Below are positions 3,471 to 42,757 of a DNA stretch of 64,000 bases, piece after piece. Numbering within the stretch: the stretch's first letter is position 1; each line of letters starts with the position of its first letter. Position numbers and translations under genes: made by a program. The stretch lies in NCBI RefSeq assembly GCF_046105845.1, contig NZ_CP151004.1. One strand, given 5' to 3'. A model generated the notes under the pieces. The model was not told where the DNA came from and searched no databases. It was given only the letters and a program-made list of their open reading frames with translations. This stretch comes from Escherichia coli (GTDB lineage Bacteria > Pseudomonadota > Gammaproteobacteria > Enterobacterales > Enterobacteriaceae).

Positions 3471-4826
3471 TTATTTCAAGTCGGGTAAGTCGTTGTATAA
3501 GCCCTGTTTAATTCCCGCTAATGGAATAAGGTTATTCACCGCAGCGGCATAATTTACGGCGGCGACCCAGCCATCATAATTGGCATTTATTTCAGCCGAT
3601 TGCGCCTGAAAGACATCTTGCTCGACGGTTAATAGATCATTCAGACTGCGTTTGCCCAATTTATATTCATTTTGGTACACTTCTCGCGTTTTGTGCGCAC
3701 TTTCGGATTGTGCTAAACCGGCTTCTTCGCGACCTCGTGCGCCGGTCCAGTTCGCATATGCCACAGACGCTCGTTGCAGCACATCCAGTTTTGCCTGTTC
3801 GACCTGCGAGGCAGAGATTTTTTGTTGCCCTTCAGCTTGTTGCACCTGGGCTGAAACTGCGCCGCCCTGATACAGCGGCGCGTTAACGTTCAGTTGTAAC
3901 TGATCATCCCAATACGAGCGGTCGCTGGTCTGGTAGCGCGTTTTGCCCCCCTGAATACTCAGCGTTGGCCAGTATTGCGCTTTCGTTTTTTCCACGCCGT
4001 ACTGTGCTGACTGGCGTAAGTTTTCTGCCGCCAGCACCAGCGGGATGGACTGGTAATCAATATTTTTCAGCGACACCGGCTGCTCGGCTAATTCAGCAGG
4101 TGGCGCGGCTATCGCCTCCGGCTGTACGCCAGTGAGCACCGCCAGTTGCGCTTTGGCGCTTGCCATCTGCGCCTGATATTGCTCCAGCGTTGAGCGCATT
4201 CCGGCAATGCGCGTCTGGGCTTGTAATTCATCCGACGATGAGTTCAGGCCAGCGTTAGCGCGCAATGCCGCCATGTTGTAGACGTTTTCCAGCGAGTGAA
4301 TATTGCGTTGAGCCGCATCGCACAAAGCCTGATAACGACTGACTTCCATATAGGCAGTCGCCGTTTTCTCTGCAACATCGGTTAAGGTTGCCATCAATTT
4401 AAAGCGGTAGCTGTCACGGGCGGCAGTTTGCAGATTGATATCGTTGTTTGTTTTACCAAAGTCATACACCAGCTGTGTCAGGGTTATGCCATACGAAACG
4501 TTGTTATCAAGCCTGCCGCTGGAATCCGTTTGTCGGGACGGCCCCGCGTTGCCGGTTAATCCAACGTGCGGATACCAGGCACTTTTGGCTTCATCAATTT
4601 GCGCTTCGCCAATGCCTATCTGCGCCGCCTGTTGAGTGACGTCGGGATTTCGCGCAAAGGCGCGTAATATACTTTCCTGTAAAGATAATCGGGCAACTGG
4701 CGTTACCGCTGGGGCGTTCGCCCATTGTGGCAGCGGTGCAGCAATTGTAGCTTCTCCCATCACCATAAAACTTATTAAAAAAATAAACCCATTATTTTTA
4801 CGGCTTTTAAACTGGAATCGCGCCAT
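3471..4826 (-). CDS. TolC-family outer membrane efflux protein, probable type I secretion outer-membrane component
   Basis: 451-aa ORF with N-terminal signal-like hydrophobic segment and TolC-like composition; sits directly upstream of the adhesin gene on the same strand. Confidence 0.75.
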   Translation of the reverse strand: MARFQFKSRKNNGFIFLISFMVMGEATIAAPLPQWANAPAVTPVARLSLQESILRAFARNPDVTQQAAQIGIGEAQIDEAKSAWYPHVGLTGNAGPSRQTDSSGRLDNNVSYGITLTQLVYDFGKTNNDINLQTAARDSYRFKLMATLTDVAEKTATAYMEVSRYQALCDAAQRNIHSLENVYNMAALRANAGLNSSSDELQAQTRIAGMRSTLEQYQAQMASAKAQLAVLTGVQPEAIAAPPAELAEQPVSLKNIDYQSIPLVLAAENLRQSAQYGVEKTKAQYWPTLSIQGGKTRYQTSDRSYWDDQLQLNVNAPLYQGGAVSAQVQQAEGQQKISASQVEQAKLDVLQRASVAYANWTGARGREEAGLAQSESAHKTREVYQNEYKLGKRSLNDLLTVEQDVFQAQSAEINANYDGWVAAVNYAAAVNNLIPLAGIKQGLYNDLPDLK

Positions 4827-5129
4827 AGATAAGTCACTTCCTTCCAGGTCATTATTTTAACTGGTTTTTATAACCAGTCTCATTTTATTAAGAAGGGTAA
4901 TAACTTGTGCATCTCTTTTGTCGATCATTGATATGGGCAAAGAAATGCAGCTAAAAAGCTTATACGTTATTTATTTAGAATACACTACGACTTTTAGATT
5001 ACCATCATACACATTAAGAATAATCCACGGTAATAAGTGATTAGCATCACAGATTTATCGCGTATATATCATTTTTTTGTGACTTATTTATTAAAGGAAT
5101 AAGAAAGGAAATTTGAATTAAAGACAAAG

Positions 5130-7391: not shown

Positions 7392-7582
7392 CTTTTGTTA
7401 ACTCCTTTTTATAGATGCGGGAGGTAATTCCTCACCCCGGTGCCGATTTTCAGGCATCCTGATTTAACTTAGCACCCGCAACTTAACTACAGGAAAACAA
7501 AGAGATAAATGTCTAATCCTGATGCAAATCGAGCCGATTTTTTAATCTTTACGGACTTTTACCCGCCTGGTTTATTAATTTC

Positions 7583-34115: not shown

Positions 34116-34204
34116 CCATAGCACGACGATAATATAAACGCAGCAATGGGTTTATTAACTTTTGACCATTGACCAATTTGAAATCGGACACTCGAGGTTT
34201 ACAT

Positions 34205-35398
34205 ATGAACAAAAACAGAGGGTTTACGCCTCTGGCGGTCGTTCTGATGCTCTCAGGCAGCTTAGCCCTAACAGGATGTGACGACAAACAGGCCCAACAA
34301 GGTGGCCAGCAGATGCCCGCCGTTGGCGTAGTAACAGTCAAAACTGAACCTCTGCAGATCACAACCGAGCTTCCGGGTCGCACCAGTGCCTACCGGATCG
34401 CAGAAGTTCGTCCTCAAGTTAGCGGGATTATCCTGAAGCGTAATTTCAAAGAAGGTAGCGACATCGAAGCAGGTGTCTCTCTCTATCAGATTGATCCTGC
34501 GACCTATCAGGCGACATACGACAGCGCGAAAGGCGATCTGGCGAAAGCCCAGGCTGCAGCCAATATCGCGCAATTGACGGTGAATCGTTATCAGAAATTG
34601 CTCGGTACTCAGTACATCAGTAAGCAAGAGTACGATCAGGCTCTGGCTGATGCGCAACAGGCGAATGCTGCGGTCACTGCGGCGAAAGCTGCCGTTGAAA
34701 CTGCGCGGATCAATCTGGCTTACACCAAAGTCACCTCTCCGATTAGCGGTCGCATTGGTAAGTCGAACGTGACAGAAGGCGCATTGGTACAGAACGGTCA
34801 GGCGACTGCGCTGGCAACCGTGCAGCAACTTGATCCGATCTACGTTGATGTGACCCAGTCCAGCAACGACTTCCTGCGCCTGAAACAGGAGCTGGCAAAT
34901 GGCACGCTGAAACAAGAGAACGGCAAAGCCAAAGTGTCGCTGATCACCAGTGACGGCATTAAGTTCCCGCAGGACGGTACGCTGGAATTCTCTGACGTTA
35001 CCGTTGATCAGACCACCGGGTCTATCACCCTACGCGCTATCTTCCCGAACCCGGATCACACTCTGCTGCCGGGTATGTTCGTGCGCGCACGTCTGGAAGA
35101 AGGGCTTAATCCAAACGCTATTTTAGTCCCGCAACAGGGCGTAACCCGTACGCCGCGTGGCGATGCCACCGTACTGGTAGTTGGCGCGGATGACAAAGTG
35201 GAAACCCGTCCGATCGTTGCAAGCCAGGCTATTGGCGATAAGTGGCTGGTGACAGAAGGTCTGAAAGCAGGCGATCGCGTAGTAATAAGTGGGCTGCAGA
35301 AAGTGCGTCCTGGTGTCCAGGTAAAAGCACAAGAAGTTACCGCTGATAATAACCAGCAAGCCGCAAGCGGTGCTCAGCCTGAACAGTCCAAGTCTTAA
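34205..35398 (+). CDS. acrA: Multidrug efflux membrane fusion lipoprotein AcrA
   Basis: ORF trimmed to MNKNRGFTPLAVVLMLSGSLALTGC... (397 aa) with lipobox. Confidence 0.97.
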   Translation: MNKNRGFTPLAVVLMLSGSLALTGCDDKQAQQGGQQMPAVGVVTVKTEPLQITTELPGRTSAYRIAEVRPQVSGIILKRNFKEGSDIEAGVSLYQIDPATYQATYDSAKGDLAKAQAAANIAQLTVNRYQKLLGTQYISKQEYDQALADAQQANAAVTAAKAAVETARINLAYTKVTSPISGRIGKSNVTEGALVQNGQATALATVQQLDPIYVDVTQSSNDFLRLKQELANGTLKQENGKAKVSLITSDGIKFPQDGTLEFSDVTVDQTTGSITLRAIFPNPDHTLLPGMFVRARLEEGLNPNAILVPQQGVTRTPRGDATVLVVGADDKVETRPIVASQAIGDKWLVTEGLKAGDRVVISGLQKVRPGVQVKAQEVTADNNQQAASGAQPEQSKS

Positions 35399-35417
35399 CT
35401 TAAACAGGAGCCGTTAA

Positions 35418-38570
<3,153 letters not shown>

Positions 38571-38587
38571 TACAACGTGTAATCACT

Positions 38588-38612
38588 AAGGCCGCGCAAG
38601 CGGCCTTTTTTA
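38588..38612 (+). terminator. Intrinsic terminator after acrB
   Basis: Hairpin aaggccgcgcaagcggcctt followed by TTTTTTAT. Confidence 0.7.
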
Positions 38613-39115
38613 TGCATAACCGACGAACATTAAGGAGTCATTGAACCACCAACTCAGGATCTCATACGAAAACCAGTATTAACCTCGCATAAAATTCATA
38701 AAAAATACTGATTGTTAGTTAATTTATATTAAGTAGCGCTAATAGATTTAATAATCCATAATCATTTAGAGGCTATTCTTAATTATTTGCGGTAATTCTT
38801 TATTCATTCCTCGGTTATTACGTCATATTCAGAGCAATCCTGGTATTAGTGCCACCAATTTCATCTGGCGATAATCCTGAAATGTTATGAATAGTTCGAG
38901 CAGACTGCTTTTACCTGCTGCGGGTTAGTGCTAGTATGAAAAAATGAGTCCTGTCCCGATTCCTTCCTAATTGTAATTTTTCGTAATAATGCGATGAAAA
39001 CCTGCAAAGAGTGGCTTATAGTTAAGCTAACAAACGAGAGGGCAAGTCCAGGTCAGTAAGTTTTTTCCATCCCGAAAGGTGTCCGTTAGTTCAACCACTA
39101 AGAAGGGGACGCGTT

Positions 39116-39490
39116 ATGGATGAATACTCACCCAAAAGACATGATATCGCACAGCTTAAGTTTCTCTGTGAAACCCTGTATCATGACTGTCTTGCAAACC
39201 TTGAAGAAAGCAATCATGGCTGGGTTAACGACCCAACCTCGGCGATCAACCTCCAGTTGAATGAACTGATTGAGCATATTGCGACCTTCGCACTTAATTA
39301 CAAAATTAAGTATAATGAAGACAATAAGCTCATTGAGCAGATCGACGAATATCTGGATGACACCTTTATGTTGTTCAGCAGTTATGGTATTAATATGCAG
39401 GATCTTCAGAAATGGCGGAAGTCAGGTAATCGACTATTCCGTTGTTTTGTCAATGCGACGAAAGAGAATCCTGCGAGTTTATCTTGTTAG
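39116..39490 (+). CDS. tomB: Hha toxicity modulator TomB
   Basis: 124-aa ORF matching recalled TomB/YbaJ. Confidence 0.93.
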
Positions 39491-39515
39491 AATTATTACA
39501 ACCATGGGTAGAAGT

Positions 39516-39734
39516 ATGTCCGAAAAACCTTTAACAAAAACCGATTATTTAATGCGTTTACGTCGTTGCCAGACAATTGACACGCTGGAGCGTGTTATCG
39601 AGAAAAATAAATACGAATTATCAGATAATGAACTGGCGGTATTTTACTCAGCCGCAGATCACCGCCTCGCCGAATTGACCATGAATAAACTGTACGACAA
39701 GATCCCTTCCTCAGTATGGAAATTTATTCGCTAA
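39516..39734 (+). CDS. hha: Haemolysin expression-modulating protein Hha
   Basis: ORF trimmed to [72 protein letters not shown] (72 aa). Confidence 0.95.
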
Positions 39735-39905
39735 TAAATAATTCGCTTTCGGAGCTATAACCGGCTGTTTATTAAGAATTTTATACTTTTTCGCCATGAA
39801 GACATACCCTATGTGATCTTTATCACACAGATGTAATGGGAACGTTCTCTTCACTGACTTTTCGTCTTACTGTGTTGCCGCATTTTCAGCAACCGGAGGT
39901 CAGTA

Positions 39906-40457
39906 ATGAGCACAGAAAAAGAAAAGATGATTGCTGGTGAGTTGTATCGCTCGGCAGATGAGACGTTATCTCGCGATCGCCTGCGCGCTCGTCAGCTTAT
40001 TCACCGATACAATCATTCCCTGGCGGAAGAGCACACATTACGCCAGCAAATTCTCGCTGATTTATTCGGTCAGGTGACAGAGGCTTATATTGAGCCAACG
40101 TTTCGCTGTGATTATGGCTATAACATTTTTCTCGGCAATAATTTTTTCGCCAACTTCGATTGCGTGATGCTTGATGTCTGCCCTATTCGCATCGGTGATA
40201 ACTGTATGTTGGCACCAGGCGTTCATATCTACACGGCAACACATCCCATCGACCCTGTAGCACGTAATAGCGGTGCTGAACTGGGGAAACCCGTCACCAT
40301 CGGTAATAACGTCTGGATTGGCGGACGCGCGGTCATTAACCCTGGTGTGACCATTGGTGATAACGTCGTGGTAGCCTCAGGTGCAGTTGTCACAAAAGAT
40401 GTCCCGGACAACGTTGTCGTGGGCGGTAATCCAGCCAGAATCATTAAAAAATTGTAA
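39906..40457 (+). CDS. maa: Maltose O-acetyltransferase
   Basis: 183-aa ORF with hexapeptide-repeat C-terminus. Confidence 0.93.
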
Positions 40458-40572
40458 CCAGTTTTTCGCAACTGTTATGCAAAATCGTGGCAAATCTGTT
40501 ACTTTCCCTCTACTATTCCCACGTTAAAATAGGGTGTTCCCTGGAAAGTTGCAGATACCACGAAGGCAAACG

Positions 40573-41043
40573 ATGACCGAAATACAACGCCTGCTGACCG
40601 AAACAATTGAGTCTCTAAATACCCGCGAAAAACGCGACAACAAACCCCGCTTTAGTATCAGTTTTATCCGTAAACATCCGGGGCTGTTTATCGGTATGTA
40701 TGTTGCTTTTTTTGCCACCCTGGCGGTGATGTTGCAGTCCGAAACGCTTTCAGGCTCTGTCTGGCTACTGGTTGTATTATTTATCCTGCTTAATGGTTTC
40801 TTCTTTTTCGATGTCTACCCACGCTACCGCTATGAAGATATCGACGTGCTGGATTTCCGCGTTTGCTATAACGGCGAATGGTACAACACGCGCTTTGTAC
40901 CTGCCGCGCTGGTTGAAGCCATCTTGAACTCTCCGCGTGTCGCGGATGTTCAAAAAGAACAACTGCAAAAAATGATCGTCCGTAAAGGTGAATTGTCTTT
41001 TTACGATATTTTTACTCTTGCTCGCGCCGAATCAACATCTTAA
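40573..41043 (+). CDS. ylaC: Inner membrane protein YlaC
   Basis: ORF trimmed to [15 protein letters not shown]... (156 aa). Confidence 0.85.
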
Positions 41044-41200
41044 GTTAGAGTTACATACCAGGCGTAAAGCTCTGCGCCTGGTCAAATGACAACGTTCGTT
41101 TCCACCCATCACTTGATGAAATACCGGCTCTACCTCCTTATCTCCTGCCAGCCTTTTTCCACAATCGGATATACTTTCTCTACACTGTGTTAATAAGGAT

Positions 41201-42757
41201 ATGCTGGTGAGAACACGACATCTGGTCGGCCTTATTTCGGGAGTACTGATTCTTTCAGTATTGCTGCCTGTCGGCTTAAGCATCTGGCTGGCCCATCAGC
41301 AGGTAGAAACATCATTTATTGAAGAGCTGAATACCTATTCCTCCCGCGTCGCTATTCGGGCCAATAAGGTGGCGATACAAGGGAAAGATGCACTGCAAGA
41401 GCTGGAAAGATGGCAAGGCGCTGCCTGTAGCGAAGCCCATCTCATGGAAATGCGTCGGGTATCTTACAGTTATCGCTATATTCAGGAAGTGGTTTATATC
41501 GATAACAACGTTCCCCAGTGTTCGTCTCTGGAGCATGAAAGCCCGCCCGATACCTTCCCCGAGCCAGGTAAAATTTCGAAAGATGGTTATCGTGTCTGGT
41601 TAACATCGCATAACGATTTAGGCATTATCCGTTACATGGTTGCCATGGGAACGGCACATTATGTCGTCATGATCGACCCCGCTTCCTTTATTGATGTCAT
41701 TCCCTATAGCTCATGGCAAATTGATGCCGCCATTATTGGCAATGCCCATAACGTTGTGATAACCAGCAGCGATGAAATTGCTCAGGGAATTATTACCAGA
41801 CTACAAAAAACACCCGGTGAGCATATCGAAAATAATGGAATCATTTACGATATCCTGCCCTTCCCGGAAATGAATATTTCGATCATCACCTGGGCTTCAA
41901 CGAAAATGTTGCAGAAAGGCTGGCATCGGCAAGTCTTTATTTGGTTACCGCTCGGGTTGGTGATTGGCCTGCTGGCAGCGATGTTTGTGCTGCGTATTTT
42001 GCGCCGTATCCAGTCACCGCATCATCGGCTGCAGGATGCTATCGAAAATCGTGATATTTGCGTGCACTATCAGCCGATTGTCTCCTTAGCCAATGGCAAA
42101 ATTGTCGGTGCTGAGGCACTGGCGCGCTGGCCGCAGACAGACGGTAGTTGGTTGTCACCAGATAGTTTTATTCCGCTGGCACAGCAAACGGGCCTTTCTG
42201 AGCCGTTGACGCTACTGATTATAAGAAGCGTCTTCGAAGATATGGGCGACTGGCTGCGTCAGCATCCGCAGCAGCATATTTCGATCAATCTTGAATCCAC
42301 CGTGCTCACCTCGGAAAAAATCCCGCAATTGCTGCGTGAAATGATCAATCACTATCAGGTTAATCCCAGACAGATCGCGCTTGAACTCACTGAACGCGAG
42401 TTTGCCGATCCGAAAACCAGCGCCCCGATAATTTCTCGCTACCGGGAGGCGGGCCATGAAATTTATCTTGATGATTTTGGTACGGGGTATTCAAGTTTAA
42501 GTTATTTACAGGATCTGGATGTCGACATTCTGAAGATCGATAAATCTTTCGTTGATGCGCTGGAATATAAAAATGTCACGCCGCATATCATCGAAATGGC
42601 AAAAACACTGAAACTGAAAATGGTAGCGGAGGGAATCGAAACCAGTAAACAAGAAGAGTGGTTACGCCAGCATGGCGTGCACTACGGTCAGGGCTGGCTC
42701 TACAGCAAGGCATTACCGAAAGAAGATTTCTTACGCTGGGCCGAGCAACATTTGTGA
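41201..42757 (+). CDS. pdeB: c-di-GMP phosphodiesterase PdeB (CSS-motif sensor plus EAL domain)
   Basis: 518 aa from the ATG; the annotated K-12 start may instead be the GTG at 41207 (516 aa). Confidence 0.9.
   Translation: MLVRTRHLVGLISGVLILSVLLPVGLSIWLAHQQVETSFIEELNTYSSRVAIRANKVAIQGKDALQELERWQGAACSEAHLMEMRRVSYSYRYIQEVVYIDNNVPQCSSLEHESPPDTFPEPGKISKDGYRVWLTSHNDLGIIRYMVAMGTAHYVVMIDPASFIDVIPYSSWQIDAAIIGNAHNVVITSSDEIAQGIITRLQKTPGEHIENNGIIYDILPFPEMNISIITWASTKMLQKGWHRQVFIWLPLGLVIGLLAAMFVLRILRRIQSPHHRLQDAIENRDICVHYQPIVSLANGKIVGAEALARWPQTDGSWLSPDSFIPLAQQTGLSEPLTLLIIRSVFEDMGDWLRQHPQQHISINLESTVLTSEKIPQLLREMINHYQVNPRQIALELTEREFADPKTSAPIISRYREAGHEIYLDDFGTGYSSLSYLQDLDVDILKIDKSFVDALEYKNVTPHIIEMAKTLKLKMVAEGIETSKQEEWLRQHGVHYGQGWLYSKALPKEDFLRWAEQHL

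Follow-up and report, generated by a model that had tools for sequence, protein, structure and literature searches.

The acrB-tomB spacer of Escherichia coli as a probable cis-regulatory region of the tomB-hha operon

What is the function of the long, AT-rich and apparently gene-free DNA that separates acrB from tomB in Escherichia coli, and could it conceal a gene of its own? The initial annotation of this locus suggested four things: the tomB-hha promoter, a long leader, a region under H-NS/Hha control, and perhaps a small RNA or micro-ORF. The first and third of these hold, while the long leader and the hidden gene do not. Hha tunes the H-NS silencing of virulence genes and of horizontally acquired genes, and it therefore matters how its own level is set.

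We consider it very probable that the spacer, following the acrB terminator, is the cis-regulatory region of tomB-hha and encodes neither a small RNA nor a small protein; this judgement covers the explanation as a whole, including its inferred parts. A single σ70 promoter (ATGAAA, TATAGT) starts transcription at 39029 and gives an 87-nt leader, as is shown mostly by published data. During envelope stress, phosphorylated CpxR would activate this promoter through a GTAAT-N5-GTAAT site in a class-I-like position. The AT-rich DNA of about 350 bp further upstream would be the place of H-NS/Hha nucleation and spreading, resulting in negative autoregulation by Hha.

Boundaries, composition and distribution of the spacer

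Throughout positions 34169–42757 of the window (the whole 64,000-nucleotide stretch of E. coli DNA analysed here), the ORF list and RefSeq annotation place acrA, acrB, tomB, hha, maa, ylaC and pdeB on the plus strand, in the order and with the sizes of E. coli K-12. The acrB stop codon ends at 38570 and the tomB ATG is at 39116, leaving a spacer of 545 bp (38571–39115); its K-12 counterpart is of equal length, with zero annotated features in RefSeq. At its head, the terminator scan identified a GC-rich stem-loop at 38588–38607 (AAGGCCGCGCAAGCGGCCTT), followed by a T-run to about 38613. The coordinates of this and the other features are given in Table 1.

Table 1. Features of the acrB-tomB spacer and of the operon downstream of it, in window coordinates
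Feature	Position	Strand	Basis and remarks
acrB 3' UTR and intrinsic terminator	38571–38613	+	Terminator scan; hairpin and T-run kept in all aligned genera
Distal AT-rich spacer, GC about 0.31	38614–38970		Length and AT-richness kept across genera, sequence mostly not
Segment of E. coli and its closest relatives, 68 bp	38617–38684		Alignments; no counterpart in other genera
RcsAB-box-like palindrome, TCAGAGCAATCCTG	38829–38842		Candidate; centred about -193 from the TSS
TTGTAATTTTTCGTAAT, tandem GTAAT-N5-GTAAT (putative CpxR box)	38971–38987	+	Repeats 38973–38977 and 38983–38987; -58 to -42
-35 hexamer ATGAAA	38994–38999	+	Promoter scan; [AG]TGAAA across genera
-10 hexamer TATAGT	39017–39022	+	Promoter scan; invariant; 17-bp spacing to -35
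tomB-hha TSS (A)	39029	+	TSS table of Kim et al. (2012); 7 nt after -10
tomB leader, 87 nt	39029–39115	+	TSS table of Kim et al. (2012); 16% of the spacer
CCATCCC leader motif	39067–39073	+	Nearly invariant; alignment of 72 distinct leaders
Small hairpin UUAGU / ACUAA just 5' of the Shine-Dalgarno (SD) sequence	39086–39101	+	Covariation
Shine-Dalgarno AAGGGGA	39103–39109	+	6 nt before the tomB ATG (39116); invariant in 72 leaders
tomB-hha operon served by the spacer	39116–39734	+	tomB 39116–39490, hha 39516–39734; ORF list, RefSeq

The initial description of an AT-rich gap without any ORF of at least 60 aa is borne out by these boundaries and by composition. All ORFs in the spacer are shorter than 60 aa, the longest being one of 40 aa on the minus strand (38885–39007), and GC content is 0.38 over the whole spacer and 0.30–0.32 over 38600–38900, as against 0.52–0.57 in acrB and 0.52 in the window. 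The tomB and hha genes are themselves AT-rich, with GC of 0.37–0.44. On a gene map borrowed from the annotation of the closest complete genome, an approximate proxy that is not fully colinear with the window, the spacer ranks longest among the 52 intergenic gaps of the 64 kb (median 127.5 bp); by the same approximate map, its GC lies below the mean of 0.445 for gaps of at least 100 bp. Positions 38689–38988 form the second-lowest-GC stretch of 300 bp in the 64 kb. The long AT-rich gap is thus confirmed as a genuine feature of the locus, above chance. A search of the spacer for repeats, MITE or REP elements returned only short matches at chance level.

The window also contains a stretch of 300 bp with GC even lower than that of the tomB spacer, and the lowest of all, at 4825–5124 (0.29). 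The proxy map puts this stretch close to the ybaT / TolC-family pseudogene gap.

Among 5426 complete E. coli genomes, 5423 have a match to the spacer; it is core DNA of the species. In 5408 of them a single place accounts for 80% or more of its length, and at most 15 of the 5423 are without an uninterrupted spacer. Relative to the tomB-hha region of K-12 there are strain-level substitutions only, and identity is 95–99% in 5163 of the 5423 genomes. To look beyond the species, we scanned for TomB in one genome per species, which yielded 80 loci in about 20 genera. acrB lies directly upstream in 76 of those loci, where the spacer measures 435–559 bp with GC of 0.35–0.40. Length and composition are therefore held within narrow limits, while the sequence itself is conserved very unevenly: in a 26-genus alignment the acrB terminator is conserved, 38685–38960 is close to unalignable, and high conservation sets in from 38968 onward. 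Cross-genus identity in the distal spacer ranges from 0.03 to 0.60 per 20-bp bin. The segment at 38617–38684 is intact in E. coli, including K-12, and in Escherichia sp. MOD1-EC7003; E. albertii, E. whittamii and Escherichia sp. E1V33 have a rearranged version of it that has lost 8 bp.

Insertions into the spacer are on record. In E. coli TUM13773, a human faecal isolate (NZ_CP128912.1, 419–1182), an IS1 element stands in place of 380 bp corresponding to window positions 38679–39058; this replacement removes the putative CpxR box, both promoter hexamers, the TSS and the leader's first 30 nt. In this strain, transcription of tomB-hha must come from IS1 or from read-through. Among the clones selected in a 700-generation competition there was one carrying a DARS1 mini-transposon in the tomB-acrB spacer of K-12 (PMC5010248), and its presence among selected clones implies that insertions in the spacer are tolerated or even favoured.

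Promoter, upstream box and leader of tomB-hha

The expectation that the spacer holds the tomB-hha promoter agrees with both the consensus scan and published data. ATGAAA-17-TATAGT (38994–39022) is the sole σ70-like site on the tomB strand in the spacer, matching the consensus at 9 of 12 positions; across 51 distinct sequences there is no variation in its -10 hexamer and almost none in the -35 core TGAAA. Shimada et al. (2014) give these two hexamers for the constitutive RpoD promoter of tomB-hha, and found by SELEX that RpoD holoenzyme alone binds this promoter in vitro. Kim et al. (2012) reported one tomB TSS (NC_000913.2 position 480019, minus strand, 53 reads) with a 5' UTR of 87 nt, the entry quoted next in their table being acrA. 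As the 51-mer given there for the upstream region ends in TATAGTTAAGCTA, the TSS is placed at the A in position 39029. The same promoter is used in Klebsiella pneumoniae, with a 97-nt UTR (Kim et al., 2012), and the native-end tomB/hha transcript of Clarke et al. (2014) begins at 39027. A published σS ChIP peak maps over the promoter, to about 38933–39128.

Reporter data narrow the region further. In Salmonella, the 1 kb upstream has three predicted promoters, of which only the proximal one is active, and in E. coli GFP is expressed from a fragment that covers -198 to -1 and begins at 38917. Promoter function maps entirely to the last 150 bp or so of the spacer. By analogy with TSS1 of Yersinia, a second promoter, TTTACC-17-TAGTAT near 38910–38937, was considered and rejected: its 8 matches out of 12 fall short of the scan threshold, it is not conserved, and it has no reported TSS.

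Three further observations concern the surroundings of the promoter. Within its spacer, GAGT at 39009–39012 (-20 to -17) is almost invariant across genera. Further downstream, the table of Kim et al. (2012) contains two weaker hha TSSs inside tomB, 115 and 16 nt before the hha start (about 39401 and about 39500), and our scan found a promoter-like TTCGCA-18-TATAAT at 39287–39316 (10 of 12 positions), which precedes the hha ATG (39516). The expression of hha may thus be partly uncoupled from that of tomB.

Just upstream of the promoter lies the most prominent feature of the comparison across genera, a 17-bp block. Of 77 loci from about 20 genera, 74 contain the exact 17-mer, A or G being allowed at one position, and in 70 of the 71 loci with TATAGT its distance to the -10 is fixed, its centre falling near -50, upstream of the -35. 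Within it, GTAAT-TTTTC-GTAAT (38973–38987) matches each half of the CpxR consensus GTAAA-N5-GTAAA at four of five positions, with the same 10-bp pitch. The K-12 cpxP promoter, which we checked for comparison, reads GTAAA-ACAAC-GTAAA and is consistent with that consensus. The pattern GTAAW-N5-GTAAW occurs twice in the 64-kb window, where 0.38 matches are expected.

Published data on the Cpx response bear on the block from several sides. According to Choudhary et al. (2020), tomB and hha appear in RegulonDB among the targets of CpxR, and tomB falls within the CpxR iModulon; tomB is absent from the direct CpxR targets detected by their ChIP-exo in E. coli, which leaves the RegulonDB entry and the ortholog as the grounds for direct binding of CpxR in E. 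coli. For the latter, a 2026 study of Yersinia pseudotuberculosis described a CpxR motif 162 bp upstream of ymoB and 56 bp upstream of TSS2; in that work CpxR~P shifted a ymoBA fragment in EMSA, and activation of Cpx raised promoter activity in a reporter. In RNA-seq after LolCDE inhibition, tomB was up 5.9-fold (a second value in the same table row being 11.2), which we read as an envelope-stress response. Taking its sequence together with the database and ortholog support, we infer that 38971–38987 is best read as a CpxR box.

The block could instead be an UP element contacted by the alpha subunit of RNA polymerase, or a site for another member of the OmpR family, for example OmpR itself, an alternative that we regard as improbable. 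It does overlap the position of an UP element, lying at -58 to -42 with a T5 run, and RpoD holoenzyme binds alone in vitro in spite of a -35 that matches at only 4 of 6 positions; its other strand reads TTAC-N6-TTAC, which we take to resemble the OmpR F1/C1 sites. The missing ChIP-exo call would also be accounted for if CpxR were not the ligand. We give these readings less weight since the block is also invariant at its G and C positions, a pattern more in keeping with base-specific contacts by a protein than with a generic A/T-rich UP element; in addition, a direct repeat of GTAA with 10-bp pitch is the signature of CpxR, CpxR~P binds and activates the Yersinia ortholog, and the interaction is listed in RegulonDB. 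CpxR thus remains our preferred candidate for the protein that would recognise the block.

The only other GTAAW-N5-GTAAW match in the 64 kb, GTAAAAGTCCGTAAA at 7548–7562 on the minus strand, agrees perfectly with the CpxR consensus and precedes the copA start (ATG 7654) by about 95 bp. Copper is linked to the Cpx response, and a CpxR consensus upstream of copA fits this link.

Transcription from 39029 leaves a leader that takes up a small share of the spacer (Table 1), and the suggestion of a long leader has to be given up accordingly. The leader does not seem to be a structured regulatory RNA either. The fold of the E. coli leader has a z-score of -0.05 against shuffles, and the RNAalifold consensus comprises 4 pairs, all invariant, at -2.4 kcal/mol; by fold stability, consensus fold and SD pairing, we found no indication of a riboswitch, a thermometer or an SD-sequestering structure. 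The CCATCCC motif has complements in GGGATG at the SD and in GGATG at codons 1–2, and many minimum free energy folds pair it with them. An anti-SD role for it was rejected, the SD pairing probability being 0.66 as against 0.63 in dinucleotide shuffles, with only the invariant pairs and near-zero z-score just given. The only covarying structure in the leader is the hairpin of 4–5 bp at 39086–39101. For the four pairs tested, 84.6% of cells are paired compared with 74.7% in shuffles, a level that none of 500 shuffles reached; a double change from U-A to G-C is seen in 24 sequences, and slid controls score far lower.

The distal spacer: silencing, further operators and the hidden-gene question

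That the spacer is regulated by H-NS and Hha, as the initial annotation had thought plausible, is already known. Shimada et al. (2014) marked it by genomic SELEX as containing H-NS binding site(s), and according to published work the loss of hha raises promoter activity, measured with GFP, and Hha occupies its own promoter in vivo. Loss of ymoA in Yersinia increases the ymoB transcript 81-fold. The composition of the spacer is also that of an H-NS/Hha silencing region, which is expected to be AT-rich relative to its surroundings (GC of 0.30–0.38 against 0.52 for the window).

The roughly 350 bp upstream of the promoter may act as a platform for H-NS/Hha nucleation and spreading, which would explain why length and AT-richness have been kept despite the drift in sequence. 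Two observations speak against such a platform: the -198 fragment is already active and Hha-responsive, and a natural strain, the IS1-bearing TUM13773, lacks 38679–39058. It is possible, although unlikely in our estimation, that the distal 350 bp are instead a functionless relic, left by acquisition of an AT-rich tomB-hha cassette and by AT-biased drift, and that the binding of H-NS there is inconsequential for tomB-hha. The near-background identity across genera over 38685–38960 would be expected of such a relic, as would the sufficiency of the -198 fragment for expression and Hha response, the tolerance of transposon and IS insertions, and the AT-rich composition that tomB and hha share with the spacer. 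Unconstrained spacers are, however, expected to shrink, whereas this one has kept its length and its GC content in the 76 loci with acrB upstream, in about 20 genera, despite turnover of sequence; moreover, a 14-bp palindrome in the distal part is conserved well above shuffles. We therefore continue to favour a silencing platform, as the possible role of the distal DNA, over an absence of function.

The palindrome in question is the RcsAB-box-like sequence TCAGAGCAATCCTG. It shares 9 positions with the 14-bp RcsAB-box consensus TaAGaatatTCcta (PMC4325325), among them all five of the core; a functional RcsAB box of Yersinia scores the same 9 of 14 (PMC4325325). At the orthologous position, -205 to -230 from the TSS, most non-Escherichia genera read TA[AG]GAATATTCCT[AG]. 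Sites with at most two mismatches to the consensus are found in 53 of 77 loci, compared with 7 of 900 shuffled spacers, and the match ranges from 14 of 14 in Kluyvera ascorbata to the weakened 9 of 14 in Escherichia. The distal DNA may accordingly carry one further operator, a predicted RcsAB-type palindrome near -193. A literature search for a link between RcsB or Rcs and tomB found none. The cross-genus alignment also reveals a weaker element, CTAAC-N3-ATGAA-N3-TAAGG, near -140. A PdhR SELEX entry for the locus was disregarded, as its sequence, matching at 8 of 14 positions, was not located in the spacer.

A more far-reaching proposal can be built on the palindrome. It might be a conserved second control module, which nearly all Enterobacteriaceae have somewhere between about -190 and -230, and through it Rcs or another regulator of the FixJ/NarL type would work against H-NS/Hha silencing at long range. 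Cpx, through the proximal site, and Rcs, through the distal one, would then both feed into tomB-hha, with CCATCCC as a point of post-transcriptional control. We offer this tentatively and consider it unlikely. If it were true, two envelope-stress pathways, Cpx and Rcs, would set the level of an H-NS co-repressor.

It is very improbable, finally, that the spacer conceals a small RNA or a translated micro-ORF. A small-RNA gene should have its own promoter and terminator, and an RNA family match or a conserved structure. The scans found no promoter/terminator pair inside the spacer, only the tomB promoter and the acrB terminator. At permissive E-values, every Rfam hit to the spacer is sub-threshold and falls on the acrB terminator, the best of them (0.24) far below the gathering score, and the distal spacer is barely alignable between genera. 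No additional TSS in the spacer appears in the E. coli or Klebsiella tables of Kim et al. (2012), a dataset of a few thousand TSSs from a few conditions which weak or H-NS-silenced transcripts would escape. A short tomB leader with no other transcript was the outcome that the initial annotation had named as speaking against its idea, and it is essentially what this dataset contains.

The best case for a micro-ORF is a TTG ORF of 13 codons at 38641–38682, behind AAGGAG, which has the best SD-like score in the spacer (-8.0 kcal/mol, all remaining ORFs scoring -4.1 kcal/mol or weaker) and which the window shares in intact form with K-12 and Escherichia sp. MOD1-EC7003. Its TTG start is only 3 nt past the SD, however, and it lies downstream of a strong terminator without a promoter of its own; E. 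albertii, E. whittamii and E1V33 have lost or altered its SD and part of its sequence, the segment is missing in other genera, and neither K-12 RefSeq annotation nor a TSS nor an Rfam match supports it. When 890 ORFs with a length of 10 aa or more, drawn from 77 spacers, were compared all against all, no small ORF with a conserved frame or conserved ends emerged. Apparent cross-genus peptide families were rejected, their clusters being translations of the invariant CpxR-box, promoter or terminator DNA, with ORF lengths and ends that vary. Also rejected was a GTG uORF in the leader (39079–39123) that overlaps the tomB start: its RBS is weak and it lacks conservation, other genera reading GTG TTC GGT TAG. 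The idea of a hidden small RNA or micro-ORF can be dropped, and the reading of the spacer as control DNA of tomB-hha is left as the one that we favour.

Relation to known systems

The promoter, the TSS, the autoregulation by H-NS/Hha and the Cpx input are already in the literature or in databases, and the window adds nothing new to them. What the comparative data leave is two modest leads, the RcsAB-like palindrome and the CCATCCC motif of the leader. The closest point of reference is E. coli K-12 as described in RegulonDB and EcoCyc, which is alike in locus, promoter hexamers, TSS, H-NS-marked spacer, autorepression by Hha and listing as a CpxR target.

With the H-NS-silenced bgl, proU and hilA, the locus shares AT-rich promoter flanks, published H-NS binding and the involvement of an Hha-family co-repressor. 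It differs from them in that tomB-hha encodes the co-repressor itself, and in having no mapped high-affinity nucleation site or downstream regulatory element. CpxR-activated promoters of the cpxP type likewise carry tandem GTAA-containing pentamers with a 10-bp pitch upstream of the -35; cpxP has the consensus GTAAA-N5-GTAAA, whereas both tomB pentamers end in T, and their orientation to the gene is opposite. A further close counterpart is the orthologous operon ymoB-ymoA of Yersinia pseudotuberculosis. Yersinia has a second TSS, 188 bp upstream of ymoB, for which the table of Kim et al. (2012) has no E. coli or Klebsiella counterpart. The two operons have in common a CpxR motif, putative in E. 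coli, about 55 bp before the proximal TSS, through which CpxR~P binds and activates the Yersinia promoter, and negative autoregulation by the Hha-family product, YmoA in the case of Yersinia.
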